Positions 228 to 47,895 of a stretch of 48,250 bases of DNA are shown here, one piece after another. Source of the DNA: Candidatus Woesearchaeota archaeon (GTDB lineage Archaea > Nanobdellota > Nanobdellia > Woesearchaeales > UBA12501); contig JACPCA010000008.1 in NCBI GenBank assembly GCA_016180035.1, forward strand, positions 1 to 48,250. The letters run 5' to 3'. Numbering within the stretch: position 1 is the first letter of the stretch; every line of letters starts with the position of its first letter. Position numbers and translations under genes: made by a program. Below the pieces are notes generated by a model that was not told the origin of the DNA, did not search any database, and was given only the letters and a program-made list of their open reading frames with translations.

Positions 228-443
228 GGCTCTGTAGAAAGTCTGCACTGCCGCCAATTTGTGAGCCCCTACTATACCTTGTTTTAGCCCGTTGCAGGGG
301 GTTGTCTCCTTGCGAGATGCCAAAAATCCGCAGATTTTTGAGCATCCCTTACGGGGATGCAGGGCTCTCGATTAAAAAACAAGGGGCGAACCCAGCGGCA
401 GTCGAGCAAAACGAAGTTTTGCGAGAAGACTTTTTACAGAGCA
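228..443. mobile_element. MITE-like element, family I-related, copy C
   Basis: Termini GGCTCTGTAGAAAGTCT (228-244) and AGACTTTTTACAGAGC (427-442) are inverted repeats (15/16). Flanked by direct repeat AAAAGAAGC (219-227 and 444-452). The interior is a chain of hairpins. Confidence 0.65.
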
Positions 444-3434: not shown

Positions 3435-4405
3435 CCTCTCTTCACCTCCTCCAGCAGTTGTGCAACACGATCGGCCCAAGCGGCGCCGAGGGAAATGTGC
3501 GGAAGATGATCGCAAAAGAGATCAAGCCGTACGTTGATGCCATCTCGGTCGATAAGTTCGGCAATCTCATCGCCCACAAGGTCAAGAGCGTGCAGGACAA
3601 CGGCCAGCTCACCTTTTCTGTGATCGGCGGCGTTGACCCTGTCGTCCTCATCGGGCACACGGCATCCGTGCTGAATTCCAAGAATCAGGTGGCCTGCAAG
3701 GGGGTCATCACGTTTGAGGAGCTCCATGAAGACCTTGAAGTCACCGGCATGCCGAAGCTCGGCGACCTGTACATTGACACCGGGCTGAAAAAAGAAGAGC
3801 TGAAAGCCCTGGACATCGGCGCAGGAAGCTATGTCGTCTTCACGCACCATTTCACCACGCTCGGCAGCGAGAAGATCATCTCCGGCAAGGCGTTGGATGA
3901 CCGGATCGGCTGCTACATCCTCATCGAGGTCGCCAAGAGGCTGAAAAGCGTGAATCAGGATGTCTATTACGTTTTCACCGTGCAGGAAGAGATCGGCCTG
4001 TACGGCTCAAAAGTGTCAGCCTACAATGTCGAGCCGGACTGGGGCATTGCTATTGATGTCACCAACGCAGACGATTCCAGCGAAAAAAATCTTATCAACA
4101 TGGGCAAGGGGCCTGTCGTGGTGCTGATGGATGCGGAGATCATCACGACCAGATGCATTGATGAGTGGCTCAAGGCAGTGGCCAAGAAGCACAAGATCCC
4201 GCTCCAGCTGAAGGTTGATGAGGTCGGAACCACCGACGCCACGCAGATCATGCTGCACAAGGAGGGCACGCCGTCGTCTGTTCTTGGCGTCGCTGTCCGG
4301 AACCTGCACTCCTCGGTCGGCATCGCCCACACCGACGATATTGCCAACGCCATCCAGCTGGTGTATGAGCTGCTGAAGAATCCTCCCAATATTTGCATTG
4401 AATAA
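3431..4405 (+). CDS. M42 (TET/FrvX) family peptidase-like protein, first metal-ligand motif missing
   Basis: 324 aa. Motifs ALDDRIGC, VQEEIGLYG, AIDVT and the C-terminal LHSS region are present. The AHMDEIG-type segment is absent. Confidence 0.8.
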   Translation: MTSLHLLQQLCNTIGPSGAEGNVRKMIAKEIKPYVDAISVDKFGNLIAHKVKSVQDNGQLTFSVIGGVDPVVLIGHTASVLNSKNQVACKGVITFEELHEDLEVTGMPKLGDLYIDTGLKKEELKALDIGAGSYVVFTHHFTTLGSEKIISGKALDDRIGCYILIEVAKRLKSVNQDVYYVFTVQEEIGLYGSKVSAYNVEPDWGIAIDVTNADDSSEKNLINMGKGPVVVLMDAEIITTRCIDEWLKAVAKKHKIPLQLKVDEVGTTDATQIMLHKEGTPSSVLGVAVRNLHSSVGIAHTDDIANAIQLVYELLKNPPNICIE

Positions 4406-5648: not shown

Positions 5649-6641
5649 TTACCTCTCATACCTCACCACCTTCTCCGTAAATCCCCGAACATCATCGGCT
5701 GTCTTGCCGGGAAAGGCCTCCATTTTCAGGACACGGTCGCTCTCGAGCTGGAAGGCAACGGTGCCAACAAGATAATCACTGTTTTTTGCTGACAATTTCG
5801 CAAAGCGTATCTCATCCCACAGTTCTCCTGACTCCGTATAATATTTTGTCTCCGCAAGGCCGTACACGACCATCCCTTTTTCTTTGTTGACTGACTCGGG
5901 GGCTGGAGCATTCCCTCGGACACTGAATGCTTGTGGAGAGCCGCCAAAATTGCCGATGGAAACCTGGATCTGTGACGGGTCGATGTGGTCATAGACAATG
6001 CTCAAGTCATCCTGCCAATACTGGGAGTTGGATGCATCACGCCCTATCCTGCGCCAGTTGCCAAGCAGTGTCCCGTCCTTGTCATACATGATCTTTCCGC
6101 CATATGGCTCTGTCATCTTGATATTTTTTGCGAGGAGAGCTGACCGGAGCGGCTCTGCAAGGTAATCAAAGGTATCCACCGTGTACAACGTCCATGTCTG
6201 AGTGTGCTCTGGAGCGATAAACTTGTTCTTGATACTGGTATCCATAATCTGGAAGTCAAACGAATGCGGGCCGACCGTGCCGATGGCCTGGCCTTTCTTG
6301 ACAGGAATTCTGGGAAAGGCATTAGGGTGCTGGCTCTCCGCGTTTCGGAATTCCACCTTCGCTTCAATGTCTGGAGCAAGCGTATCGATGTGGATAAGGC
6401 GGGTGTAGAAGGTGCAGGAATGCTCGAAAAAGACAAGGTAATTATTGATGTAGGGCTGGTCCTGATAGTTTATCTCGACCGGCTCTTTGAACAGCTCAAT
6501 ATTGATGATGTAGCCATCAGCAGGGGCTCGGACCTCGTAGCGATACGGGTCATCCGTCACGAGCGACTTGCTTTTAGTCTCTTTTGGGATAATGTACTGG
6601 TGGTCGGTCGGTGTCACGTGAGAATTCTGAACTCGGCCCAT
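5649..6641 (-). CDS. Hypothetical secreted protein, C-terminal part (frame stays open upstream to 6842 without an ATG)
   Basis: 330-aa ORF with protein-like composition. Contains a LytM/M23-like stretch PVKKGQAIGTVGPHSFDFQIMD. No signal peptide of its own. Confidence 0.5.
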   Translation of the reverse strand: MGRVQNSHVTPTDHQYIIPKETKSKSLVTDDPYRYEVRAPADGYIINIELFKEPVEINYQDQPYINNYLVFFEHSCTFYTRLIHIDTLAPDIEAKVEFRNAESQHPNAFPRIPVKKGQAIGTVGPHSFDFQIMDTSIKNKFIAPEHTQTWTLYTVDTFDYLAEPLRSALLAKNIKMTEPYGGKIMYDKDGTLLGNWRRIGRDASNSQYWQDDLSIVYDHIDPSQIQVSIGNFGGSPQAFSVRGNAPAPESVNKEKGMVVYGLAETKYYTESGELWDEIRFAKLSAKNSDYLVGTVAFQLESDRVLKMEAFPGKTADDVRGFTEKVVRYER

Positions 6642-8399: not shown

Positions 8400-8450
8400 G
8401 TTCTGTGTGAAATAGCTTAGCCTACCACAAATGTTTGTTAGGCAAAAAAT

Positions 8451-8622
8451 AACAAAACAGGCCAAAGGCCTGTAACGGGTTGCGGCGCCGCCACGCATCG
8501 TTATAACAGTCGTGTCCATTTTTCTTGCTCAACACTGGTGTAGAGCAAGAAAAATGGAATTGATGAGAGGTCTGCAATTGTGGCGGCGCGTGTGTCCCGT
8601 TACCGGCTCTGCCGGTTTTGTT
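8451..8622. repeat. Family II structured palindromic element, copy 1
   Basis: Order: AACAAAAC, hairpin AGGCCaaaGGCCT, GTAACGGG, GGCGCCGCCAC, central hairpin CCATTTTTCTTGCTC/GAGCAAGAAAAATGG, GTGGCGGCGC, CCCGTTAC, hairpin CCGGCtctGCCGG, GTTTTGTT. Lies between convergent genes. Confidence 0.8.
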
Positions 8623-8720
8623 AAACGCTCTTGCCGTTAAGAAACACGAAAGAAAGGATAAGAAAATAATTGACCGAGATGACAGCGCAAAAATACCGAT
8701 CAATACCCTTTTAATATCGA

Positions 8721-17943: not shown

Positions 17944-18207
17944 GGCTCTGTCTCGAATCTCCTTATGGGCGGTGCTGTTGCCAAGCGCCGTGCCCGATGT
18001 CCTAAGCGAATGCTCGGATACTTGGGATACGAGCGATTGGCAAGCGCGAACAGAGCGCAGCAGCACCGCCCATTTCGGGAGGGGAATGGCACTGCTGCGC
18101 TCCGTTCACCTATGGAATCGGCCATGAAACCGAGTCTTTCATTCATTGACGGGCAATGGATAACTGCACTTGGCAGCAGTGCCATTCCCGACATTCGGGA
18201 CAGAGCC
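17944..18207. mobile_element. MITE-like element, family I, copy B, inserted in the rpl14-rpl24 spacer
   Basis: TIRs GGCTCTGTCTCGAAT (17944-17958) and ATTCGGGACAGAGCC (18193-18207), 14/15. Perfect 9-bp direct repeat TTCCTCAGC at 17935-17943 and 18208-18216. Confidence 0.8.
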
Positions 18208-24299: not shown

Positions 24300-25289
24300 T
24301 TATTGCTGTGATGATGTGCTGATATATTGCACGGTTGGCGCTTCTGTTGGGATGGTATGATCAGGACGCATGGATTGGGTGAGGCGGACAAGGCGCTTCT
24401 TGGAGCCGGCAACAGATCCTCGAAGGAGAAGATACGGGCTCTTGACAAGGCCATAGCGCCCAATCCCACCTGCAGGATTGATGGCAGAAACATCAGAACT
24501 GATCTTGACGATGGGCTTGTTCCATTCTGTCCTGGAGTGATACCCCATCTGTCCTGCGTGGGCAACCCGGTACATCATGTGCTGCTGGCCGCGCCAGGCG
24601 CCAAGGCTTCCTGGCCCGCGCTTGGTCTTTTCTGCCTTGTGCTGCCGGATGGCAACGCCAAAGCGCTTGACTGGCCCCTGAAATCCTTTGCCCTTTGTCA
24701 CGGCGTGAACATCAACCTGCTGACCCTCTTTGAGGATATCCTGGACAGCCAGTTCTTTTCCAACAACAGACTTCGCATAGTCTGCCTGGGCCTGGACAGC
24801 TCCGGGCAGCGCGACTTCGAACAGGTCGGGTATTTTCTTGCCAAACCCGACGAGATTAGGCTGGGTGGCGACAAGAAGGTGGACTGCACAGATGCCGTCA
24901 AGAGAAACAGAAGGGAGGGAAGAAAGCGTGTCTTTTTTGGGGAGTGGAAGCCTCTTGCCCAACTCTTTCCCCTTGTCAGGCTTGGCAAACACTTCGGTCT
25001 TGACGCGCGTTCCCCACGCTGTCTTGGTGAGGAAACGGACGCCAACGACGTTGAGCGGTGGGCATTCGATAATCGTGACAGGGATACTGATCGGCTGGCC
25101 TTTTGTCTTGGATGTCTGGCGATTGTCTACCATAACAAGATGAGTCATGCCTGCCTTGTACCCGGCAAACTCGACCGGCCGCACCTCTTTTCCTTTGGCA
25201 AGAGAAGCATTGACTCGTGGATAGCTCCGTCTAGCTCGCTTCCGTGGCCAGTAAGCCATGCTTCCGTGACGTGGGTGGTGATGTCCCAT
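24300..25289 (-). CDS. rpl3: 50S ribosomal protein uL3
   Basis: PRHGSMAYWPRKRA..FAGYKAGMTH..GKGFQGPVKRFG motifs. First gene of the superoperon. Confidence 0.95.
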   Translation of the reverse strand: MGHHHPRHGSMAYWPRKRARRSYPRVNASLAKGKEVRPVEFAGYKAGMTHLVMVDNRQTSKTKGQPISIPVTIIECPPLNVVGVRFLTKTAWGTRVKTEVFAKPDKGKELGKRLPLPKKDTLSSLPSVSLDGICAVHLLVATQPNLVGFGKKIPDLFEVALPGAVQAQADYAKSVVGKELAVQDILKEGQQVDVHAVTKGKGFQGPVKRFGVAIRQHKAEKTKRGPGSLGAWRGQQHMMYRVAHAGQMGYHSRTEWNKPIVKISSDVSAINPAGGIGRYGLVKSPYLLLRGSVAGSKKRLVRLTQSMRPDHTIPTEAPTVQYISTSSQQ

Positions 25290-25976
25290 AAAATAGTGCC
25301 TGCTTCATGACAAACAGTGCGAAAAAGAACAAGCCGTGACACTTTTTCAAAAAAAAGCCCCAAATAAGGGTTTTTTCAGCAAAGAGCCTATTTTTGAAGC
25401 CAGTATTCTCAGAAAAAAGTTTATTGCTAAACTTGTACTGAAAAGACTCCTTTTCAGGCTTGGTTTTCCAAATCTCGCATTTAAACCTTCCAATAACGCG
25501 TTTAAATGCCCTGTTGCGTATTTTTGAAGAAAACGGGACCGATTTATAAAGATTGTGGTGGGGTGGGCTTTGTAGAAAAAGTCTTCTTAAATAGGAAGAA
25601 ATGTTGTGGAGGATGGCTCGGCTGTAGATTTGGCTTCGTTGATTTCTGATGTTGGTGGAGCTGAGGGTGCTGGAGTATTTGCTTTTGATGCTGGAATTGA
25701 TGGTTTCTGGTGAGGTAGGCTACTACTTTTGTTTCACCTGCTGGTTTCGCATTAATCTTTATTCTAAAATCTTGGCCTAAGACCCCGCTTTAGCGTCTGT
25801 TTTAACTGGGAGATACAGGCCAAAGCGCTTCTTTCATTGGAAAATTTGGAAGATGCGATAGCTCTCACCTACTATTCCAGGAAATTTCCACCTGCACTCA
25901 GGATAGGCGTGAAAAAGCAAGGAAAAGATTCAAACAGATTGTTGGTATTCGGACACCAAGATAAACTTCATTCTTA

Positions 25977-28900
25977 TTACCTCTCAACACCAACATTCAC
26001 TGAAGCGCTTCTCTGCCTGCTGGGATACTCAACGATCAGGTCGTTTCGTCTTGTCGTATCTTCCAGCCGGAAGTGCGTCCCGTACACGGTCATCGCCTCT
26101 TCATAGTCTCCTGCATCATACGTGCGCAGGCCTGGAAGGCTGACACCGATCTCCCCGTCAGTAACACTAAAGCGGATAGTAGTTGTCTCATCCGGTGAGC
26201 TTGAATTGCTCAGGTAGCGCTTCAGCGTCCGAAGCGTGATATCCGTCGGCGATCCTGCAGCCCCAAGCTCGAGAATGCCATTGCCCATGATGTTGATGGG
26301 GATGGCAGCGCCATTGAGTGTCCCGTCAGCGTTCTGGTCCACCACCAGCTTGTCGCCGGCAGGGTTGATGAAGAACTCATACGACACGCCGGACAGCACC
26401 AGGCTTCCCTGGCCAAGGCCGGCAGCGTCGATGGCTTCATACGCCGTAAAACCCTCGACAGTAAACGTGAGCTGCTTTGTCTCTTTGTTATACTCGACGA
26501 TCGTGCAGGACTCGCAGGGCTTCCCATCCTTGTAGATCACTGGATTGATCATGTCCACGTTTTCAAGGGTGACGATGGCAGGCTTGTCCAGTTCTGGCGC
26601 CTTGCTGGAATCTACCTCCACCCTGTTTTTGCTGAAGATGACGGACTCATCCAGATTCAGCCCTCTGGCATCGACAGCCTTGGCAAACTCGATCTTTCCA
26701 AGCCCGTTCCTGCCAAGCGTCAGCCGGTCAACACGCTTCAAGTCATCCAGTGTCTTCGTGGAAAAGTCCGTAGTGACCTCTTTGTCAAACGTCGCTGCTT
26801 GCGGCGGCTCGTTGATGGCGTTATCAGACTGGAAGGCGCTGAAGAGATCACTAAAAAAGTCGCTGATCTTATCGATGATGGATTTCTCTCCGCCAGCCTC
26901 TCCACCTGCCTCATTTCCGGCTGGCTGGCCAGTTTCCGGCATCCCCTGCTGGCCTTGGAGAGATTCTTCATACTCCCTGATCATTTGGTCATAGATCTTG
27001 TCCCTCGCCTGGCGGTCTTCGTCCTCTTTGAACATCTGATCATATCCCTTCTCCCGCTGCTCGCGCTCGTACCGTTCTATCATCTCATCATAGAGCTTCA
27101 TGCGCTGCTGCGTATTGTAGTCTTCAATCATTTTATCATACAGCTTCTCTCGCTTGAGGCGCTCGTCATACTCGTTCATCATCTTATTATACTGTTTCTC
27201 CCGCGCCTGCCGCGCCGCATCTGCTTCCTCCGCAACAACTTTGTCATTGACAAGGGCTTGAAGAGGGCCTCCCTCGCCGGGAACATCAGCAGAACATTTT
27301 GTTTCAGATGCGCAGTTCTCGCCGACTTTGGGATCGATCGTGACACAACTTTTTCCTCGGCACAGCGTTACGGACTTGCCGATAAGCGGCTCGTCCATAG
27401 AGAGAACAACCTTGTTCGTGCCCGGCAATTGGTAGATAACCGCAGCTGTTTTTGGCGTTTCTGGTGATGGCTGCGGCTGCCGTTCACAAGCGCCTTCCTG
27501 GCAGTTCGTGCACAATGAAAAGTCCATCTTTTCAGGCTTGTCTCCAGCACAGACCTGCTCTATCAGGTACTCCTCTTTTTGAAGCGGCTCTCCAACATAC
27601 TTCCATTCGTCATAAAAACATTCATCATAATGTTGAAACGGAGTGCCATCGTCCAATGCCCCACTAGTAAATCCGCTGGTATACGGCTCAAAGCCGCCGT
27701 CACTATCTGTGCAGCTTCCCTTGCCCTGCCTTACCCGTTCTTGCGGCTCGACGCAATGGTCTCCCTGACAGTCACAATCATAGCTTACAACACCATACAC
27801 ATCCCCTTTGCATATTGATTCGTATAGGGTGTGGGGATCATGGCACATATCTTTGTATGTTCTGCTCGACCCATCTGCTCTTGTTTCTGTTGCGCTGCCC
27901 TGTGTTTTGGGATTGTCTCCGTCGGTGTCAGTGCAGCTTCCTCCCTCGTTTTTGGGGATTGGGCCTGTCAAGGATGACTCTGGATCAGGGTTCTTTTTTA
28001 TATCAACACATTGCCCGCCCATACAGAGGCATTTTATGCTCTTGTCTCTGATCTTATTCTGATCGCAGTACACCTCAACAAGAGTTTCCGCCCTATCAGG
28101 GTACTTCATATCAAAGATGCTGTCAGCGCAGAAATCATGCTCCTCATGCACCTTTCCTGTCTCTGACACTTCTATCGCTGTACCCTTCTTATAATAATTG
28201 ATGCCACCGTCGCTATCCGTGCAGCTCGGCGTGTTTGCCGGCAGGACTGTTTGTGGGGTGAACCGATTAACCTTCTCCTTGCAGGCGCCGCCTTCACAGT
28301 CACATTCGACATTGATGAACTGCGGTTCGACACCGTTACAGATGTACTCATTCAGCATGCTTAGCCCAAGGCAGCTGTCCGTAAACTCAAAGCCGACGCC
28401 ATTGCTGTCAATGCCAGTCACCTTTCCTTGATTGTTGAAGTCTTTCCCGTCACTATCCGTACAGGAGGGCGTTGCAGGGCTGTTCGTCGTTTGTGTTGCC
28501 GAAGGCTGGCTGTCCATGCGTGCTGGCACTCCATCAAGCTTTACGGTTATCTCTCCCTCTCCAGGCACGTCCATAGAGCACTTGGATTCCGTAGCGCAGT
28601 TCTCCCCAACCTCTGGCATGAAGCTGACACAAGAATCTCCTCGGCAGATGGTGATCTGATGGTTGAGGAACGACGCGTCTGCTTCGACAACAACGTGCTG
28701 GCTTCCTGGAAGCAGATACGCTGTCTTGACAACCGGCTGAAATCTGACATTGACCGTTGACGAGCTCCCCGGCGCTAATTGAGGAGGAGAAGCTCCTGGC
28801 GGAGGAACCACCAATTTGGGAGAAGGCAGCGTTGCACCGCCAGTTGAAGGAACAGATGGAGCCTGGCGCTGTTCTGGCTGTGGTGTAGCATCAATACCAG

Positions 28901-31538
28901 CGTCACACAACTTCTGGGCAGCATCACGCGCCTTGATAAATTCGTTAAAATACAAGTCATGCGCTTCCTGGAACGCTGCGTCATACACTGCCTTTGCGCC
29001 GGCATCCGTATACTTCGACTGTTCATAGCCTTGCCATGCTGTGCGCGTCAGCTGGACTGCCCGTTCATACGCTGCCTTGACCGCTGAAAATTTGTTTTTG
29101 GCATCCTCACACTGCTGCTTTGTTTCAACATCTTTCGGGTTAGGACAATTTTTACCGTAGGTTGCCGGGCCTGTGTAGGGTTTGTCGTAGAGCGGATTGC
29201 CGCATTGCATCCTGGTCAGGTCATCCCTGCGGGCATCGCCAGGCTCACAAGTATTGCCGCTGAAAGGGACGTAGAACCTGGCATCAGGTGTTGAAGGGCA
29301 TGATTCGCAGCAGATGAATACTCCTTCATCCTGAGGGGCTTCCGGTGGATTTGAATCACTGCCGGAACTGCTGGCTGGAGCATTATCGAATGGAGAAGCT
29401 TCTGGAGGGACCATCATCCAATCGGGTGGCGTGTACTGCTGGTCATCAGCATTTCCGTTTTCTCTCTGCGCCTGTTCTCCTGGCGCTGCTTCCTGGCCAA
29501 CGGGCTGCTCTGGTGAGGGGACATACGGCTTGTTGGGATCAATGCCATGCGCCAGATTCCACGCGTCTATGTCTGCCTGCTTTTGCGGCTGGCATTTTTT
29601 TCTGGCATCAAGGATCTTGTCCATGTTGTAGTTGATCTCCCGCACCATATCTGTCATCTCGTCATTGCAGGCTTTATAGACATCATCGGACATTTCTTCA
29701 TAGTTGTAACATGTTTTTGCTTCGTCGGGGATCATGCTGTTCCCGTACATATTCATGCAGTCGTCAGTGGCTTGCTGGACTTGAGGCGGGAAGGCATTTT
29801 CATTCATCAGGTAATCCATGAACTCCGAGCACACATTGAACGGTTTAGCGCCAAGCATGCTGATAATCACTTGATCGCCGCTGATCTGCACGCCGAACGG
29901 GCTCATTTCCTCGTGCATGGTCGATTTAATCTGCCCGGAAATGCGATCGCAGGCTTTCTTGAACCCTGGATCGGCCGCGTCACTGCTGCCAGCACGGTCA
30001 TCTTGAAGATCTGCTGCCTGATAACCGGTGAGGTAGGTGATCGGCGCGCTTATCTTTTCGCCGCCAAGAACATCAAGCCCGAAGATGCTGTCAAGAAAAA
30101 AGGCGCCGGTCGGCAGAAGGCCGATGATCTTGGTATTCCCGCTCAGATCCGTGAAGACGGCATTGCCGTTCTGGACACCATCAAAATGGAGGATGTGCGT
30201 CCTGCCCTTGCCTTCTGAACCAGCTGTTGTAATGAAGCGATCATCTTGATTGATGACATAGTCCGAGGCATTTCTTCCTTCAGTAAAAATGATGTTGTAC
30301 TCTTCTGTGCCATATTTGAGCGTATTGCCCACCAGGCTGAGGAGGCGGACGTCGTACTGCTGGCCGTTATTATTGACAAATTCGAGATCGTAATTGCTGT
30401 CGCGCGCGTCAAAGGTGGCAACAGATCCGCCAGTCGCTGACGACGATGGAAGCGATGTGCCTGCAGAGCTGCTGAATGACAGGTCAAACGCAGAGGAGAG
30501 CAGCCCCATCGGCGCCCGGTGATACAGAGAAAGCCAGCTGCCAGTCGGGACGAACACGTCGCCACCAGGGCCTGCTGCTTCGAGGCGGTAGGAAAGTGCA
30601 GAGATAGAGACGACGCTATTGCTGGTTGACCCTTGTATCTTGAGTTTGGAATCGACAAGGCGGTCTCCATTGACTTGGACGCCGCCAGCGGTAAAGGAAT
30701 TGTCGGTGATGTCCGCATCTTCCATCACTATCGAACGCGGGCCTGCAAGGATCGTCACCATATCACCATGGCTTCCTGTTCCCTCCCCTGCTTCATTGGG
30801 AACAATGTCCAAGACAGTGAGGATGGCGATATCGCTGGCATAGAGAGTCTTTCCCTTCTCCATGGCAGGAGTAAGATTCCCATTGACACGGAGCACCACC
30901 GTCGGCGGCGTTGCCGTATCAGAAACAGAGAAAACCTCAATAAGGATAGTTGAGCTGCCGACAGAGATCGTCTCTTTTGACCCTTCCACCAGCGTTTTTT
31001 GAACTGGGCTTCCTGACAGGTGAAGCTCGATGGCATTGTTGCGGAGCTCTGCGCTGCTGATCGTGAAATCCTGGCCGAGGATGGAAAGGCTCTTGCCCGT
31101 CAGGTCAACCAGATCGTTGGATTGGATCTCGCTGCGGAGCGGTGCGGAAAACGACATGCGGTACTCAAAGATATCATCGCCATTCTTGCATACCAAATAG
31201 TCCCCGGGCTCTCCTTCTTCGTTCTCTGCAAAGCGGCGCGTGCAGGACTCGATCGGGTCGCCGGCAACATTGTCCTGAAACACGATGAATTGGGAGTATT
31301 CTGCCTTTCCTTCGTTGGTAAAGAGGGAGCCGTCAGCAAGGCCGTCCCAATCATGGCTCGTCAAGGAGCGGTACTCCTGGCCGATGTTTTCGTTCACGTC
31401 AAGCTTTTGCAGGACAAGGTCCCCCGTTGGAAACTCAGAAAAGGACGACAAGACTGCGATGCTGATGGCGACAAAGGCAAGAACAATGATGACTGCAGCA
31501 CGCGGATAGGGAGCATCGCCTCTTTTTTTATCCATCAT
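25977..31538 (-). CDS. Giant (1853 aa) N-terminally membrane-anchored, Cys-rich, repeat-containing cell-surface protein
   Basis: N-terminal TM (AAVIIVLAFVAISIAVLSS). Four SCTD(S/T)DG Cys-rich modules, two copies of a CRG(D/K)SC domain, five KxYDxMI repeats, Pro/Gln-rich linkers. Uninterrupted ORF. Confidence 0.8.
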   Translation of the reverse strand: MMDKKRGDAPYPRAAVIIVLAFVAISIAVLSSFSEFPTGDLVLQKLDVNENIGQEYRSLTSHDWDGLADGSLFTNEGKAEYSQFIVFQDNVAGDPIESCTRRFAENEEGEPGDYLVCKNGDDIFEYRMSFSAPLRSEIQSNDLVDLTGKSLSILGQDFTISSAELRNNAIELHLSGSPVQKTLVEGSKETISVGSSTILIEVFSVSDTATPPTVVLRVNGNLTPAMEKGKTLYASDIAILTVLDIVPNEAGEGTGSHGDMVTILAGPRSIVMEDADITDNSFTAGGVQVNGDRLVDSKLKIQGSTSNSVVSISALSYRLEAAGPGGDVFVPTGSWLSLYHRAPMGLLSSAFDLSFSSSAGTSLPSSSATGGSVATFDARDSNYDLEFVNNNGQQYDVRLLSLVGNTLKYGTEEYNIIFTEGRNASDYVINQDDRFITTAGSEGKGRTHILHFDGVQNGNAVFTDLSGNTKIIGLLPTGAFFLDSIFGLDVLGGEKISAPITYLTGYQAADLQDDRAGSSDAADPGFKKACDRISGQIKSTMHEEMSPFGVQISGDQVIISMLGAKPFNVCSEFMDYLMNENAFPPQVQQATDDCMNMYGNSMIPDEAKTCYNYEEMSDDVYKACNDEMTDMVREINYNMDKILDARKKCQPQKQADIDAWNLAHGIDPNKPYVPSPEQPVGQEAAPGEQAQRENGNADDQQYTPPDWMMVPPEASPFDNAPASSSGSDSNPPEAPQDEGVFICCESCPSTPDARFYVPFSGNTCEPGDARRDDLTRMQCGNPLYDKPYTGPATYGKNCPNPKDVETKQQCEDAKNKFSAVKAAYERAVQLTRTAWQGYEQSKYTDAGAKAVYDAAFQEAHDLYFNEFIKARDAAQKLCDAGIDATPQPEQRQAPSVPSTGGATLPSPKLVVPPPGASPPQLAPGSSSTVNVRFQPVVKTAYLLPGSQHVVVEADASFLNHQITICRGDSCVSFMPEVGENCATESKCSMDVPGEGEITVKLDGVPARMDSQPSATQTTNSPATPSCTDSDGKDFNNQGKVTGIDSNGVGFEFTDSCLGLSMLNEYICNGVEPQFINVECDCEGGACKEKVNRFTPQTVLPANTPSCTDSDGGINYYKKGTAIEVSETGKVHEEHDFCADSIFDMKYPDRAETLVEVYCDQNKIRDKSIKCLCMGGQCVDIKKNPDPESSLTGPIPKNEGGSCTDTDGDNPKTQGSATETRADGSSRTYKDMCHDPHTLYESICKGDVYGVVSYDCDCQGDHCVEPQERVRQGKGSCTDSDGGFEPYTSGFTSGALDDGTPFQHYDECFYDEWKYVGEPLQKEEYLIEQVCAGDKPEKMDFSLCTNCQEGACERQPQPSPETPKTAAVIYQLPGTNKVVLSMDEPLIGKSVTLCRGKSCVTIDPKVGENCASETKCSADVPGEGGPLQALVNDKVVAEEADAARQAREKQYNKMMNEYDERLKREKLYDKMIEDYNTQQRMKLYDEMIERYEREQREKGYDQMFKEDEDRQARDKIYDQMIREYEESLQGQQGMPETGQPAGNEAGGEAGGEKSIIDKISDFFSDLFSAFQSDNAINEPPQAATFDKEVTTDFSTKTLDDLKRVDRLTLGRNGLGKIEFAKAVDARGLNLDESVIFSKNRVEVDSSKAPELDKPAIVTLENVDMINPVIYKDGKPCESCTIVEYNKETKQLTFTVEGFTAYEAIDAAGLGQGSLVLSGVSYEFFINPAGDKLVVDQNADGTLNGAAIPINIMGNGILELGAAGSPTDITLRTLKRYLSNSSSPDETTTIRFSVTDGEIGVSLPGLRTYDAGDYEEAMTVYGTHFRLEDTTRRNDLIVEYPSRQRSASVNVGVER

Positions 31539-31557
31539 TGATAAATAAGGCCTGCGC

Positions 31558-31565
31558 TTTTTATA
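31558..31565 (-). promoter_or_regulatory. TATA-like box (TATAAAAA on the minus strand) for the giant surface-protein gene
   Basis: About 20-27 nt upstream of the ATG at 31538. Immediately downstream (minus sense) of the MITE target duplication. Confidence 0.4.
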
Positions 31566-31580
31566 CTTTGTGGTTTAGGG

Positions 31581-31877
31581 TAATACTTCAGCTTTGTGAA
31601 GCGTTACCGTCCAGGGGTCGAGCCTCTTCCATGTCTTTGTCGAGACTGACAAGGGGGACGCCCCATCCGGGGAATGTCAGTTCTCAATACCCTGAGCGAA
31701 GGCGAGAAGACGGTAACGCTTCACAATGAAGCAGGGAGAGCATCTTCGAAATCCTCGACGTAAAATGGAGGGCGCTGCGTCCCCGGATGGGGCATCCCCC
31801 CGCAACGCGCCCGACAAAGAAACGAGAGGATTTCGACCTCAATGATGCTCTCCCTGCTTCAGGAAGCTGAAGTATTA
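31581..31877. mobile_element. Dimeric MITE-like element (two inverted ~130-nt structured modules)
   Basis: Perfect 14-bp TIR TAATACTTCAGCTT (31581-31594) / AAGCTGAAGTATTA (31864-31877). 9-bp direct repeat TGGTTTAGG at 31571-31579 and 31878-31886. Confidence 0.8.
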
Positions 31878-31881
31878 TGGT

Positions 31882-32424
31882 TTAGGTCAGTTTATGTTTG
31901 GGATACCCTTTACCGCCATGACGACGAAGAAGGGCGATGATGCGCGGCAGAGAAATTGGTTTTGCAGTATTGATGATGATAGGGTCATGGCCGTGCTCAA
32001 CAGCGTCAGAATGGCAGGCTTCCATGATCTCGCATTCCAGATTATCATCTATCTTTTGTTTGGAGTAGCCTTTCTTCTTGAGGCGCTGATAGAGCGTCTT
32101 CAGGCTGCAGGTTGTCACGATGCAGGCATCAACAAGTTTGGGGGAAGCAGAATAAGAGAGATGGGAATCGATGATGAGGTTGGCCTGCTTCTTGGCATGC
32201 TGCTTTTCTCTGTCGGAAGCAGTCATGATAAGCGCATCGAGCTCCCTGCCGAGCTTTTGCTCGTCAACAACCGTGCAGCGCCGCTTCCAGTCGTAACTCT
32301 CCCCCAGTCTCTTTTTCTTAAGGAGGGCGTTCACGTCAACATAGGTATACCCCCATGCTTTCGCAAGCCTTTTTGCAAGAGTGGTTTTCCCTGTTCCAGG
32401 AGTTCCGGTGATAATAAGGATCAT
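31882..32424 (-). CDS. Adenylate kinase isoenzyme 6 / Fap7-like NTPase (small-subunit rRNA maturation factor)
   Basis: MILIITGTPGTGKTTLAKRLA Walker A, short AK6-type length (180 aa). The start was trimmed to the ATG at 32424, which overlaps the upstream stop (ATGA). Confidence 0.75.
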   Translation of the reverse strand: MILIITGTPGTGKTTLAKRLAKAWGYTYVDVNALLKKKRLGESYDWKRRCTVVDEQKLGRELDALIMTASDREKQHAKKQANLIIDSHLSYSASPKLVDACIVTTCSLKTLYQRLKKKGYSKQKIDDNLECEIMEACHSDAVEHGHDPIIINTAKPISLPRIIALLRRHGGKGYPKHKLT

Positions 32425-32932: not shown

Positions 32933-33086
32933 GGGGGCGTAGTATAACCTGGCTAGAATGGCTGGCTCCAGCAATGGAGCGATGAGCTGCAGAATATCTG
33001 CAGCGATGATGAAACGCTGTGGTCTGTTGAAGCTTTCGCTTCAATGAAGAGACCAGCAGGTCTGGGTTCGAATCCCAGCGCCCCCA
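32933..33086 (+). tRNA. tRNA-Trp (CCA) with 80-nt intron at canonical 37/38
   Basis: Acceptor GGGGGCG/CGCCCCC, anticodon stem GCTGG/CCAGC, loop CTCCAG|A with CCA at 32968-32970, T-arm CTGGG-TTCGAAT-CCCAG, discriminator A. One A-A mismatch in the D stem. No encoded CCA. Confidence 0.75.
32972..33051 (+). ncRNA. tRNA-Trp intron carrying box C/D-like guide RNA elements
   Basis: AUGAUGA at 33006-33012, GCGAUGA at 32979-32985, AUGAAGA at 33044-33050. Short antisense elements to anticodon-loop positions 32-36 and 38-41. Confidence 0.5.
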
Positions 33087-33094: not shown

Positions 33095-33144
33095 AGTTGA
33101 AAAGATTATTGTTCTACTGATTGGGGGAATTAAGAGAAGTAAAT

Positions 33145-33326
33145 AACAAAACCGGCAGAGCCGGTAACGGGTTACGGCGCCGCCACGCATAGGCCTATAG
33201 ATTATGTCCGTTTTTCTTGCCCCTCACTGGTGTAGGGCAAGAAAAACGGAATTGATAAAGTACTGCGATCGTGGCGACGCAGATGTCCCGTGACCCGCTG
33301 AGCGTAGCGAAGCCGGGTATTTTGTT
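33145..33326. repeat. Family II structured palindromic element, copy 2
   Basis: Same architecture as 8451-8622, with compensatory changes: central hairpin CCGTTTTTCTTGCCC/GGGCAAGAAAAACGG, side hairpins CCGGCagaGCCGG and ACCCG..CGGGT. Lies between convergent tRNA-Trp and dnaG. Confidence 0.8.
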
Positions 33327-38389: not shown

Positions 38390-38424
38390 TTTCTTTGTAG
38401 GCAGAGAACGGATTGATAGAAAAT

Positions 38425-38680
38425 AATAAAACCGGCAGAGCCGGTAACGGGTTATGGCGCCGTCGCCTATCACATTGTTCTTCCAATCCATTTTTCTTGC
38501 AATTTGTAACAAAAAATAATAAATGTGCCAGGGGCACAACGGGTTACGGCGCCGCCACGCATGAATCTGTTGTTCATGTCCATTTTTTTGCTCCTCAACA
38601 GTGTGGAGCAAAAAAATGGAATTTATGAAATTAAACGCGACGGCGCGGATGTCCGTTAATGCCCATTTGGCATTTTTGTT
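38425..38680. repeat. Family II element, copy 3: truncated left half (38425-~38500) followed by a complete copy (~38508-38680)
   Basis: The left half is near-identical to the copy 2 left arm. The complete copy has side hairpins GTGCCaggGGCAC and ATGCC..GGCAT, and central hairpin CCATTTTTTTGCTCC/GGAGCAAAAAAATGG. Confidence 0.75.
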
Positions 38681-38833
38681 ATTTTTTGTCCAAACGTGCG
38701 ACACTGAGAAATTTATTACTTTTCACAAAACGAATAATCGCAACATTAATAAAACAGTTGCCTTGAAAAGCGGAGAAGCGCAGCGATCACTGCATCGCGG
38801 CACCGTATAGCTGCTTTACCCCACCAGTTATAG

Positions 38834-41902: not shown

Positions 41903-42067
41903 GGCGCTGTAAAAAATGTCATCCAGATTTTGGTGCGCCGCCGTGACTTTCACTGAAGACTCTTTTTTCTTTCCCACCCTGCAAGGTGAGGTGGGAAAGA
42001 AAAAAGACCTAAACCAAGTTTAGATACGGCGGCGCTATGTATAAGCCATGATATTTTCTACAGAGCC
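41903..42067. repeat. Hybrid structured element, copy 4: family I-like termini with a family II-like core
   Basis: Termini GGCGCTGTAAAAAATGTC and GATATTTTCTACAGAGCC (reverse complement GGCTCTGTAGAAAATATC). Core GCGCCGCCG .. TCTTTTTTCTTTCCCACC/GGTGGGAAAGAAAAAAGA .. CGGCGGCGC. No clear target duplication. Confidence 0.6.
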
Positions 42068-45293: not shown

Positions 45294-45344
45294 AAGGGGA
45301 TGATAGCAAGATGAGAAAGCTGAAGTATTACGAAAAGTAGAAAG

Positions 45345-47347: not shown

Positions 47348-47370
47348 GGCTCTTGTTTTCTTTAAATATT

Positions 47371-47895
47371 ATGATACCGCTTGAAGATAGAATTAAATGG
47401 GCTGAAAGAGCAGATAAAAATCAAAACCCCGCCAATTTCTTTAGACAGCACTATGATCCTGATACTACAAGAAGCCAATTAGCCAAAAAAGATTGCGCAT
47501 TGTACAGGATATTAAGCAGGAAAAGATTGCTTGATGAGGCCATACCTGATTTTGACCATGAAACATCTGAAAGAGTAAGAAGGGCACGCACAGAAGTAAG
47601 TAGGTTTGGAAATGACCCATTTGCATATTACCAAGAGCATCATGCTGGATTGACAAGAGGACAATTGTGGAAGCAAGACCAAAGCTTGTATCAGAGATTA
47701 AGAAGTGATGGGTTGTTGGACCAGGTTCCTGTTACAAGAACAGATTTTGGAAATGATCCTGTTGCATATTACCAAGAGCATTATGCTGGATTGACAAGAG
47801 GACAATTAAAAAAGCAAGACCCAAGCTTGTATCAGAGATTAAGAAGAAATGGCTTATTGGACAATGTTCCTGCTAAACCTATTAAGATTAGATAG
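47371..47895 (+). CDS. Hypothetical protein made of three ~47-aa repeats
   Basis: Repeats 2 and 3 (47605-47745 and 47746-~47880) are near-identical at nucleotide level: FGNDP(F/V)AYYQEH(H/Y)AGLTRGQL.KQD.SLYQRLR..GLLD.VP. Repeat 1 has diverged. The track start TTG (47353) was replaced by the ATG at 47371. Confidence 0.5.
   Translation: MIPLEDRIKWAERADKNQNPANFFRQHYDPDTTRSQLAKKDCALYRILSRKRLLDEAIPDFDHETSERVRRARTEVSRFGNDPFAYYQEHHAGLTRGQLWKQDQSLYQRLRSDGLLDQVPVTRTDFGNDPVAYYQEHYAGLTRGQLKKQDPSLYQRLRRNGLLDNVPAKPIKIR

Follow-up and report, generated by a model that had tools for sequence, protein, structure and literature searches.

The 297-bp non-coding feature lying between two genes of a small archaeon (Woesearchaeota), in the 48,250-nt stretch of DNA analyzed here (the window), is a composite non-autonomous DNA transposon (MITE) and belongs to a family mainly confined to DPANN archaea. 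The explanation that we consider best, with a probability of roughly 0.7, is that this MITE is mobilized in trans and carries two hairpin modules.

Boundaries and parts of the element

A preliminary description had proposed an insertion with perfect terminal inverted repeats (TIRs) and a 9-bp target duplication. Every detail of the TIR, duplication and module coordinates that we checked was borne out in the sequence. The repeat TAATACTTCAGCTT at 31581–31594 and the reverse complement of 31864–31877 were identical (14/14), and the match extended imperfectly to 22 nt (20/22; 31581–31602 and 31856–31877). With two mismatches allowed, this 14-mer occurred three times in the window against an expectation of 0.24. 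The flanking duplication was perfect (9/9). Within the element, the only open reading frames (ORFs) were of 63 aa (TTG start) and 52 aa, indicating that it has no coding capacity. The stop codon of the flanking AAA_18 (Fap7-like) kinase ORF had been placed in the right duplicate and the TATA box of the gene for the giant surface protein beside the left one, and both were found there (Table 1). The right junction was reproduced in a separate assembly (Logan contig L117, SRR12113431), which breaks inside module 2; the exact 297-bp composite was seen only in the window and in this contig, which represents the same locus.

Two hairpin modules fill the interior, each with one copy of the core GGGGGAYGCCCCATCCGGGGA on opposite strands, where shuffled sequences are expected to contain none. 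The closing stem P1 of module 1 is a perfect 18-bp helix, and that of module 2 is likewise perfect over 18 bp (23 nt at 91% by repeat search) and is followed by an 11-bp inner stem. Folded as RNA and compared with shuffled controls, module 1 gave a z-score of -5.6 and module 2 one of -7.6 to -9.4, and the whole element as single-stranded DNA adopted a Y shape of -90.5 kcal/mol (z = -12). The modules had been described as two inverted copies of one unit. Their opposite orientation was upheld, but they are not copies of each other: only 70 of 135 aligned columns are identical (about 52%), and each is nearer to some module of another genome than to its neighbor (module 1 to that of L037, 68.8%; module 2 to that of L024, 71.3%). 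By sequence comparison, the two are judged to be members of two subfamilies, with no duplication of one from the other.

Table 1. Positions of the element, its parts and related features (window coordinates unless a locus is named)
Feature	Position	Strand	Remark
TATA box TATAAAAAG of the 1853-aa gene	31557..31565	-	Gene ATG at 31538; element immediately upstream
Left target-site duplication TGGTTTAGG	31571..31579	.	TATA box of the 1853-aa gene 5 nt away
Left TIR (G)TAATACTTCAGCTT	31580..31602	+	Overlaps P1 of module 1 with its inner part
Module 1	31594..31726	+ (sense)	P1 18-bp closing stem, P2, P3 (CTGACA/TGTCAG), apical core
Core 1 GGGGGACGCCCCATCCGGGG	31653..31672	+	Within module 1
Module 2	31727..31861	- (sense)	18-bp P1, 11-bp P2 (GAGGATTTCGA), P3, core
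Core 2 GGGGGATGCCCCATCCGGGG	31781..31800	-	Within module 2
Right TIR	31856..31877	-	Perfect over 31864–31877; junction also in independent contig L117
Right target-site duplication TGGTTTAGG	31878..31886	.	Includes kinase-gene TAA stop (31882–31884, - strand)
Second module-bearing family member, GGCTCTGTAGAAAGTC repeats	228..443	+	Perfect 9-bp duplication
Split-core halves of the 228–443 element	GGGGGTTG 297–304; CCTTACGGGG 347–356	+	
Solo right end, repeat class of the 297-bp element (AAAGCTGAAGTATTA)	45316..45330	+	Rest of the element gone
Partner IS copies	L045, L122/L123, L125–L128		9/9 duplications

The window holds two further traces of the family. The solo end at 45316–45330, taken together with two upstream bases, reads AGAAAGCTGAAGTATTA and is identical to the right end of L037; it lies 15 nt from another TATA box of the same sequence, upstream of the FEN1 gene. 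Since AAAGCTGAAGTATTA, 15 nt and then TATAAAAAG thus occurs twice, the TIR was suspected of being a promoter motif; this reading was rejected because the same ends bound elements elsewhere and because proximity to TATA boxes is a target preference of the whole family. The second module-bearing element is flanked by the duplication AAAAGAAGC (219–227 and 444–452, 9/9), a 42-nt insertion interrupts its core behind position 8, and it carries repeats of the class (GGCTCTGTAGAAA) for which a partner insertion sequence (IS) was found.

The family and a partner transposase

Genome and metagenome searches for other copies of the module or TIR, as the preliminary description had suggested, yielded a large family, amounting to hundreds of modules in DPANN archaea. 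The core GGGGGANGCCCCATCCGGGG was present in more than 116 contigs, nearly all of them labeled as MAGs of Woesearchaeota, Nanoarchaeota or simply "archaeon", individual genomes carrying several copies, and 145 cores were counted in 833 kb of fetched loci. Copies from two repeat classes and many genomes, otherwise almost without sequence in common, have kept this 20-nt core nearly unchanged. The core was found on just one of 2.9 million viral contigs, and a viral origin was set aside. An all-versus-all comparison of the ORFs from 116 loci revealed no recurrent neighboring protein. No description of the element family was found in the literature searched, with the motif as text included; a MITE census reports one Woesearchaea genome with 105 MITEs per Mb and does not describe the elements (PMC11602168).

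Mobility is evident from the flanks. Flanking 9-bp repeats matched at 9/9 positions in 10 of 89 copies and at 8/9 in five more, compared with a control maximum of 7/9, and A_NAN_12 and CSMAG_1005 contain sets of nearly identical copies that differ in their flanks and have 9-bp duplications. The repeat class of the 297-bp element occurs at unrelated loci (L037, L129, L138/L140 and the solo end). A monomeric module, which had been predicted, was recovered in MAG nzgw58 (L037), where one module is enclosed by the window's own repeat and flanked by repeats that match at 7/9 positions, and a groundwater contig (L129) has the window's two-module order and layout at a different locus. Modules designated "Type C" have neither terminal repeats nor duplication, and some modules may therefore spread or persist by another route. 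Family copies lie a few bases from TATA boxes, and the TATA-proximal geometry of the window's element recurs in many members and in the partner IS itself; beside the promoter of the giant surface-protein gene, the 297-bp element could alter expression of that gene. Two copies are situated in frame inside genes, and different copies are read in different frames.

The autonomous partner proposed in the preliminary description was found for the sister class with GGCTCTGTAGAAA repeats and not for the window's own class. It is an IS5-like DDE element of ~890–900 bp (891–901 bp in the copies measured) with perfect 9-bp duplications and without core or module, indicating that transposition by this enzyme does not depend strictly on the core. 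Its terminal repeat GGCTCTGTAGAAAGT matches the MITE repeats GGCTCTGTAGAAAAT and GGCTCTTAGGCAAAT. The transposase (269–289 aa, IS5-like) contains a DDE_Tnp_1 domain (PF01609, E = 8e-11), and the IS5-family motif Y-(2)-R-(3)-E-(6)-K is visible in its translation (YWQRSIVEALIGAVK). IS903-type elements of the IS5 family produce 9-bp duplications and have GGC... termini (ISfinder family descriptions). The best NCBIfam model, NF033579, scored 93–111 bits against a cut-off of 140; being below the NCBI IS5 equivalog cut-off, the transposase was named "IS5-like". No partner carrying repeats of the window's "GTAATAC" class (GTAATACTTCAGC) was found, and a metagenome scan with the window's repeat plus the start of P1 recovered the relatives L129 and L138/L140 and no transposase. 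When the window and the loci were searched with tblastn and a profile of 60 homologues, the transposase was detected only in L045 and not in the window, where the same search gave a 15.6-bit trace at 25234–25719.

Folding of the module and its possible role

The module is a three-helix hairpin (P1-P2-P3) capped by the 20-nt core, which consists of a run of five G, 2 nt, a G, one variable position and a 4-bp hairpin with a U-N-C loop. Across the family, 91.9% of the stem cells were paired, compared with 35–43% when the partner strand was slid, and none of 500 shuffles reached the observed value. Two-sided changes were present in 26 of 29 stem pairs, and the core hairpin has undergone three compensatory events. 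The suggestion that each arm has kept its own fold is thus supported by strong two-sided compensatory change across the module family. The preliminary description had further set the element apart from a plain MITE and had listed a small RNA among the options. It is a MITE after all, although an unusual one, because its interior is better conserved than its ends; a small RNA is not favored, since the stems show neither an RNA-type excess of G·U pairs nor a strand bias. C-GNA-G triloops, which are especially stable in DNA, are frequent among the modules. As a separate observation, which speaks against a folded-DNA view, the core is asymmetric and nearly invariant, and its UNC(G)- and GNRA-like loops and the peripheral hairpin expansions resemble features of RNA. 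Inspected by eye, the internal loops did not fit a kink-turn, a hammerhead or an HDV-like motif.

In our reading, a single TIR pair brackets two hairpin modules from different subfamilies, and the composite moved as one unit into a ~43-bp spacer between the stop codon of the Fap7-like kinase gene and the BRE/TATA of the giant surface-protein gene, duplicating 9 bp of target. A DDE transposase would act in trans, as shown for the sister repeat class and as we infer for the window's own class. That the module is a folded-DNA feature recognized by a protein is our preferred mechanism, held tentatively and at somewhat less than even odds. It is favored by the nearly exclusive Watson-Crick pairing, the loss of strand bias on masking the core, the weak orientation bias relative to genes, the foldback form of core-less MITEs with the same repeats, the frequent C-GNA-G triloops and the Y-shaped fold of the whole element as DNA. 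Extrusion of hairpins or cruciforms from both strands might bring together the two ends of a very short element, and the apical core would be a candidate recognition site of a conserved protein, either a host factor or an accessory contact of the transposase. With folding and core recognition combined, the element could be well suited to transposition by an enzyme supplied in trans. Because it encodes nothing and its insertions lie directly upstream of promoters, it would do almost no harm in a compact genome. A more far-reaching proposal, which we regard as unlikely, is that the module represents a new class of functional folded nucleic acid carried as transposon equipment. In RNA form, it might be a protein-binding or self-processing RNA that neutralizes insertions into transcribed DNA, a prokaryotic counterpart of "introner"-type elements; in DNA form, it might be a folded-DNA transposition enhancer whose invariant 20-mer is recognized by a conserved protein that DPANN archaea have in common. 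Both forms would account for the survival of the interior through changes of terminal repeat and transposase.

The modules might instead be structured RNAs carried by the transposon, a read-through transcript folding to the benefit of element or host, with the DNA symmetry secondary; a processing, stability or termination signal, a protein-binding RNA and a ribozyme are the candidates. We consider this doubtful, though it deserves serious weight. Several helices, asymmetric internal loops of conserved length and the strong covariation agree with it, as do a core loop in which U14, C16 and G17 are invariant and N15 is free (UNCG-like), GNRA-like loops (GAGA, GUAA) capping a small 3' hairpin, and variable peripheral hairpins at fixed core points, a feature of many structured RNAs. 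Copies are also located in transcribed DNA, be it 3' of genes, in a 5' leader or within ORFs, and, when folded as RNA, the sense strand is more stable than the antisense in 83 of 109 copies. However, this energy difference nearly disappears when the core is masked, leaving no convincing bias, and minimum-free-energy structures contain 273 G·U pairs in sense versus 312 in antisense. Covariation in the core hairpin fits a triloop register (pairs 10-20, 11-19, 12-18 and 13-17), not the UNCG tetraloop. Nearly all stem pairs are of the Watson-Crick type, and G·U is as infrequent as A·C (16 versus 11 of 692 cells), which renders RNA-only selection doubtful; a strand test based on mismatch type gave 47 versus 35 (p = 0.22). 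Module orientation relative to neighboring genes is only weakly biased (49:32), and since the two window modules are oppositely directed, one of them is read in antisense whichever strand is transcribed. No Rfam family matched any module type: the window's element gave nothing at gathering score and, up to E = 10, only a chance-level hit to GNAS-AS1_4 (E = 8.9), and eight loci with other module types gave no match. A tRNA scan of the window gave nothing relevant. The same purity of the pairs, with seemingly single-step compensation and almost no G·U intermediates, would be expected if the folds were functionless, their palindromes perfected by template switching or gene conversion between the arms and the core hitch-hiking from a successful founder. 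Many peripheral hairpins are perfect 7–9-bp palindromes with 3–4-nt centers, and MITEs of the same genome that have the same repeats but lack the core likewise form extreme foldbacks (-150.8 kcal/mol with RNA parameters for 264 nt). Even so, this account is quite improbable, because a core that stays nearly invariant across two repeat classes and many genomes, where almost nothing else is shared, is not expected without selection. Internal loops that are non-complementary yet constant in length have also persisted next to perfect stems, and P1 has kept its pairing in elements in which it has ceased to form the transposon end (window and CSMAG_1005 copies).

Relatives inside conserved domains, namely those of an RsmB/F methyltransferase (L074) and a PLD-like protein (L002), would suit modules that are intron-like and removed by the archaeal splicing endonuclease (bulge-helix-bulge) or by self-cleavage. 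We judge this very improbable: the in-gene copies are in frame and free of stops (in L074, 165 nt plus the 9-nt duplication, 58 codons) and can simply be translated, as Rickettsia palindromic elements are. Neither a frame-breaking in-gene copy nor a split gene was present among 61 candidate gene pairs, the closing stems are continuous and lack the two 3-nt bulges flanking a 4-bp helix, and the Rfam searches matched no ribozyme. It is scarcely credible that the segment belongs natively to this genome, as a conserved regulatory region between genes or as a small-RNA locus, and that its flanking direct repeat is coincidental. In keeping with a native locus, the empty site that the preliminary description had called for was not recovered: an exact 22-mer across the predicted junction (...ACTGACCTAAACCACAAAGTAT...) had no match in metagenome contigs, the nearest homologue of the flanking kinase is 58% identical and too distant for a synteny test, and a look-up of the giant 1853-aa protein returned no record. 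Against it stand the perfect inverted repeats with their 9/9 direct repeat, the same ends at unrelated loci (L037, L129, L138 and the solo end) and the family-wide 9-bp duplication rule.

Significance and relation to known elements

Although DPANN genomes are very small and tightly packed, these elements are numerous in them. The family reverses the usual pattern, with ends that vary and an interior that is conserved down to one 20-base motif. It offers a clean test case for what a non-autonomous element may need beyond its ends, whether a folded-DNA aid to synapsis, a host-factor site or an RNA device. Its insertions also show how transposons locate safe positions in compact genomes, whether a few bases ahead of TATA boxes, beside resident copies or in frame within protein loops. 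In practice, the 20-base motif marks contigs as DPANN, and it is also a source of breaks in assemblies.

Like MITEs derived from the IS5 family, the elements are short and non-coding, have a fixed 9-bp duplication and TIRs that in the GGCTCTGTAGAAA class match those of a DDE (PF01609) IS, and are present in many copies mobilized in trans. They differ in that their interior is an unrelated structured module and no deletion derivative of the IS, this module being better conserved than the repeats and common to two repeat classes. They differ further in that the partner transposase falls under the IS5 cut-off and that the window's repeat class has yielded no partner.

Correia elements, ERIC and RUP are small, intergenic, promoter- or terminator-proximal elements with long hairpins, some with an IHF site. 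The window family resembles them as small elements that lie in intergenic, promoter- or terminator-proximal positions and fold into long hairpins, and the host-factor site in some of them is the analogy behind our hypothesis that the core is a protein site. These structured bacterial MITEs (the Correia elements being those of Neisseria) have been reviewed (PMC10969869). Unlike them, the present family has an archaeal host, a 9-bp duplication instead of TA and a multi-helix module with an invariant apical 20-mer, and it shows no sequence relation to them.

Rickettsia palindromic elements (RPE) have no recognized terminal repeats, duplication or transposase. They share with our family a length of about 100–170 nt, the palindromic form, a reduced genome and in-frame positions in protein domains (L074, L002); the window family, in contrast, has duplications and an IS partner and is unrelated in sequence. 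REP units are 20–40 nt long, have no terminal repeats or duplications and are linked to Y1 (RAYT) transposases. The arrangement of two inverted small structured units in an intergenic spacer recalls the REP/BIME mosaics of enterobacteria, whereas the TIRs, 9-bp duplications and DDE partner distinguish the window family from these mosaics and from palindromic elements derived from IS200/IS605.

Architecture of the window element

The window element belongs to a DPANN-wide family of MITEs and is itself composite; the perfect TIR, the 9-bp target duplication and the two stem-closed modules named in the preliminary description were all confirmed in the sequence (see table). The TIR extends imperfectly to 22 nt (20/22 matching), and the window contains three occurrences of the 14-mer end, compared with 0.24 expected even when two mismatches are tolerated. 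Each module carries the 21-mer GGGGGAYGCCCCATCCGGGGA a single time, the two copies lying on opposite strands, and none is expected from shuffles. RNA folding gave z-scores against shuffled controls of -5.6 (module 1) and between -7.6 and -9.4 (module 2), and the whole element as single-stranded DNA was predicted to adopt a Y-shaped fold (-90.5 kcal/mol, z = -12) composed of a 14-bp base stem and two hairpins. Logan contig L117, assembled independently (from run SRR12113431), reproduces the right junction and terminates within module 2.

Features of the MITE family and other repeats in the window
Feature	Position	Details
Left TIR of window element, TAATACTTCAGCTT	31581-31594	perfect inverted match to 31864-31877
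Target duplication TGGTTTAGG	31571-31579 and 31878-31886	both ends of window element
Module 1	31594-31726	closing stem 18 bp, perfect
Module 2	31727-31861	closing stem 18 bp, perfect; inner stem 11 bp, perfect
MITE with module, first end class	228-443	9/9 duplication AAAAGAAGC
Core-less foldback MITE, 264 bp	17944-18207	9/9 duplication TTCCTCAGC
Truncated second copy of the 264-bp foldback	1-218	cut by window start
First-end-class element, 165 bp	41903-42067	ends GGCGCTGTAAAAA / GGCTCTGTAGAAA; 18-bp perfect inner hairpin
Solo end of the window element's class	45316-45330	
Unrelated palindromic family, at least four copies	8438-8625, 33138-33300, 38418-38500, 38510-38695	

Module 2 had been described as the inverted homologue of module 1. 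The two share a common core (the nearly invariant 20-nt motif at the apex of each module) on opposite strands; they are identical at only 70 of 135 aligned columns (about 52%) and belong to two subfamilies. In an alignment of 24 sequences, module 1 was nearest to a module of MAG nzgw58 (68.8%) and module 2 to the module at L024, from a Nanoarchaeota MAG (71.3%), and the identity between modules 1 and 2 was 53%. Because each is nearer to modules of other genomes than to its companion, the element is a chimera of two subfamilies rather than a duplication.

The duplicates lie relative to the neighbouring genes as previously stated. The right one contains the TAA stop of the 180-220-aa AAA_18 (Fap7-like) kinase ORF, and the left one is 5 nt from the TATA box TATAAAAAG, itself situated 27 nt before the ATG that starts the 1853-aa ORF, the giant surface-protein gene. 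The pre-insertion spacing from the kinase stop codon to the ATG of the next gene was ~43 nt. The best named homologues of the kinase were from Woesearchaeota and Nanoarchaeota, at identities of at most 58%. The 1853-aa protein (25977-31538, minus strand) gave a single Pfam match, over residues 1594-1701, to an autopeptidase S59 domain of the Nup98/96 type (PF04096, E = 1e-9), an uncommon feature in a surface protein from an archaeon. Antisense within the kinase gene and close beside the element, a weak C/D-box sRNA-like match, sR44, was detected at 31933-31996 on the plus strand (26.8 bits, gathering score 45, E = 1.7e-4).

Distribution and mobilization of the family

When one genome per species was scanned, the core GGGGGANGCCCCATCCGGGG was found in at least 116 contigs, with several such contigs per genome in many genomes. 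Archaeal labels accounted for 78 of the 80 listed titles, mostly Candidatus Woesearchaeota, Nanoarchaeota or Nanoarchaeia, and some MAGs were labelled 'Methanosarcinales', 'Euryarchaeota SM23-78' or plain 'archaeon'. One of 2.9 million viral contigs carried a core (L118, IMGVR_UViG_3300015189_000030, 21.7 kb, positions 4376-4395). A relaxed core pattern recovered 145 cores in 833 kb of fetched loci, which is not a genome-wide density, because these loci were picked for bearing a core. The stem around the core differs in sequence among all copies while complementarity is kept, and more nested stems lie farther out. Type A modules (AGGTCRAAA...TTTYGAAG, ~133 nt) include both window modules; type B (TTGCGAGG...CCGAGC) adds a further outer stem, and its small 3' hairpin is capped by a GAA or GNRA loop; type C (...CGAGCC-core-TGGCGAGTAGG-hairpin-CCGTC) measures ~90-105 nt. 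Additional hairpins follow the core in some copies, and the core is split after position 8 in the groundwater contig L129 and in the window MITE that begins at 228.

A 9-bp duplication is the rule across the family. Six near-identical copies in MAG A_NAN_12, with ends GGCTCTTAGGCAAAT and its complement, are surrounded by 9-bp direct repeats, two of them perfect (TTATTCGTC and TCTTGTTCG) and one matching at 8/9, and six copies in CSMAG_1005, with ends (G/A)TAAGTAAAAAGTC, have flanking repeats of 8-9 bp. Repeats outside the outermost stem matched at 9/9 in 10 of 89 copies and at 8/9 in 5 of 89, the maximum in a shifted control being 7/9. The ends fall into two classes, one GGCTCTGT.GAAAAT-like and the other GTAWGT...-like, the latter taking in the (G)TAATACTTCAGC of the window element. 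In short type A elements (e.g., the loci L015 and L024), the terminal repeat is the module's own closing stem, P1. The search for monomeric modules and for further copies of the TIR proposed in the preliminary description was productive: the end class of the window element surrounds a single module in locus L037 (flanks ACTTTCCCC / CCTTTCCCA) and an AT-rich, core-less 256-bp element in L138/L140, and it stands at the start of L129, where a module-1-like unit is followed immediately by TGAAGCAGGGGCAGCATC, the module-2 stem. The two-module order of the window element therefore recurs at another locus, and adjacent module pairs in other arrangements are present at L018, L054, L061 and L085.

The autonomous partner that had also been proposed was found for the first end class only. 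Contig L045 contains an element of 901 bp that is bounded by perfect 17-bp repeats GGCTCTTTAGCAAATGG and flanked by a perfect 9-bp duplication GTTGAGACA. Its 269-aa product has a DDE_Tnp_1 domain (PF01609, E = 8e-11) and the motif Y-(2)-R-(3)-E-(6)-K. This transposase has more than 356 homologues, the best 120 of which are 58-78% identical, 270-300 aa long, mostly on ~1-kb contigs and, where named, transposases of Nanoarchaeota or Nanoarchaeia. Since the top NCBIfam model, IS5 family NF033579, scored 93-111 bits, below the cut-off of 140, the element is termed IS5-like. Fetched IS copies are 891-892 bp long, with repeats GGCT(C/T)TGTAGAAAGT, and their duplications, GGAGTCGAG and TCTTTCTAC, are perfect; in contigs L121/L124 and L122/L123, one IS copy has a common right flank (GGAGTCGAG...) and a left flank that differs between metagenome contigs, indicating rearrangement at the IS. 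The IS5-like ends are those of the first MITE class, and none of the IS5-like copies contains a core; the module is therefore cargo and not an IS remnant. In A_NAN_12, these same ends surround two different module subfamilies. A transposase homologue was found neither in the window nor in the other loci searched, and no autonomous partner with GTAWGT-like ends was found; that class is probably mobilized by a related DDE enzyme. A lone GGCTTTGTAGAAAAAGTC end with one mismatch to the IS repeat (window 25566-25583) and an IS5-like transposase profile trace (25234-25719, 15.6 bits, E = 0.004, minus strand) may together represent a decayed IS copy, situated between the L3 gene and the giant gene's 3' end.

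Insertion sites and other repeats in the window

MITE copies land beside promoters. Most clean-ended copies have a TATA-like box (TTTATAAA, TTTATAAT or TATAAAA) 4-7 nt past the duplication on one side, and its placement is the same in the IS5-like copies. This family-wide proximity accounts for the 15-nt distance to TATAAAAAG that the window element shares with the solo end at 45316, and the interpretation of that spacing as a promoter motif was dropped. This siting may reflect a preference of the enzyme or the persistence of those insertions that do no harm where spacers are very short. Downstream of genes, module orientation is weakly biased (49 sense, 32 antisense). No gene broken out of frame was found among 61 candidate flanking ORF pairs. 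The copy in locus L074 (5045-5209) lies in frame inside the conserved domain of an RsmB/F rRNA methyltransferase, split at profile position 75/76, where the 165-nt element and the 9-nt duplication amount to 58 codons. The copy in locus L002 (about 6150-6250) is in frame inside the conserved domain of a PLD-like phosphodiesterase, and the two cores are read in different frames (GKPHPG and GEAPSG). Elements also abut the ends of resident copies: the IS5-like element and the MITEs are repeatedly placed against a resident MITE end, in L045 (3736-4636 and 4650-4800) and at window 218/228. This suggests that existing ends are targeted or that elements hop locally beside them, and insertion against resident ends is a plausible route to composite two-module elements.

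The 264-bp foldback has ends GGCTCTGTC(T/C)CGAAT and a fold energy of -150.8 kcal/mol (RNA parameters); it lies 3 nt upstream of a minus-strand ATG, and its duplication includes a GAGG Shine-Dalgarno-like motif. The 165-bp element has neither a core nor a clear duplication. The second, unrelated palindromic family (~190-210 bp; TAACAAAACCGGCAGAGCCGGTAACGGGTTACGGCGCCGCCACGCAT ... TCCATTTTTCTTGC-hairpin ... CCCGTTACCGGCTCTGCCGGTTTTGTTA) shows no clear target duplication in its window copies, one of which immediately follows an intron-containing tRNA. This tRNA (32933-33086; Rfam match of 42.2 bits) was missed by ARAGORN in bacterial mode, and its 154-nt span implies the intron. Tandem 130-nt copies, 88% identical, lie at 47605-47734 and 47746-47875 within the ORF 47353..47895.

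Conserved fold and possible function of the modules

The type A structure was derived from 24 modules using a plain MAFFT alignment and RNAalifold, whose consensus comprised helices P1 (14 bp), P2 (8 bp) and P3 (4+3 bp), with two-sided changes in 27 of 34 predicted pairs. Across 29 stem pairs, 91.9% of cells were paired, compared with 35-43% for slid partners, and the covariation score was 0.66, compared with 0.10-0.17; none of 500 shuffles reached the observed value. The module helices are kept by compensation, and the two-sided changes at 26 of the 29 pairs support the earlier claim that each arm keeps its own fold. Pairing in P1 could be explained by the need for an identical transposase site at both ends, an explanation that does not easily extend to P2 and P3; P1 is still paired where an outer repeat is the true element end. 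G·U pairs (16) and A·C mismatches (11) were about equally rare among 692 stem cells, and a cruder test on all copies gave 47 and 35, respectively (p = 0.22). The sense strand folded more stably as RNA in 83 of 109 copies; when the core was forced to be unpaired, this fell to 66 versus 42 (median difference, -0.9 kcal/mol), and G·U pairs were fewer in sense than in antisense folds. The rarity of G·U pairs and the small strand difference with the core unpaired therefore indicate that the stems are strand-symmetric and that the core alone is asymmetric. Within the core, G1-G5 are nearly fixed, positions 6, 7 and 9 vary freely, and insertions occur at position 9; three compensatory events (U10-A20, G10-C20 and U11-A19) fix the hairpin pairs 10-20, 11-19, 12-18 and (13-17), with the loop U14-N15-C16.

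We tentatively favor the reading that the module works as folded DNA (probability about 0.4). An element of 130-300 bp is too short for easy looping, and foldback extrusion from both strands could draw its ends together. Such extrusion would need Watson-Crick pairing on both strands, which the observed stems fit, and the invariant asymmetric apex would be best explained as a protein recognition site. The RNA-like appearance of the loops, junctions and expansions, together with the location of copies in transcribed DNA, speaks for modules acting at the RNA level, which we nevertheless regard as rather unlikely; no Rfam family matched the modules. It is less probable again that mutation keeps up the palindromes while the core hitch-hikes, since this would leave unexplained an invariant 20-mer among otherwise unrelated copies. 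We give very little credence to an intron-like element, and least of all to the window element being a native regulatory region.

Literature searches, which included the core motif as text, found no description of this MITE family; a MITE census mentions a density of 105 MITEs per Mb in one Woesearchaea genome and nothing further (PMC11602168). The closest known systems are IS5-family-derived MITEs, structured bacterial MITEs such as the Correia elements, the Rickettsia palindromic elements and REP/BIME mosaics. The DPANN family is set apart by ends that vary around a structured interior that is conserved, by the invariant core and by the group of hosts that carries it.
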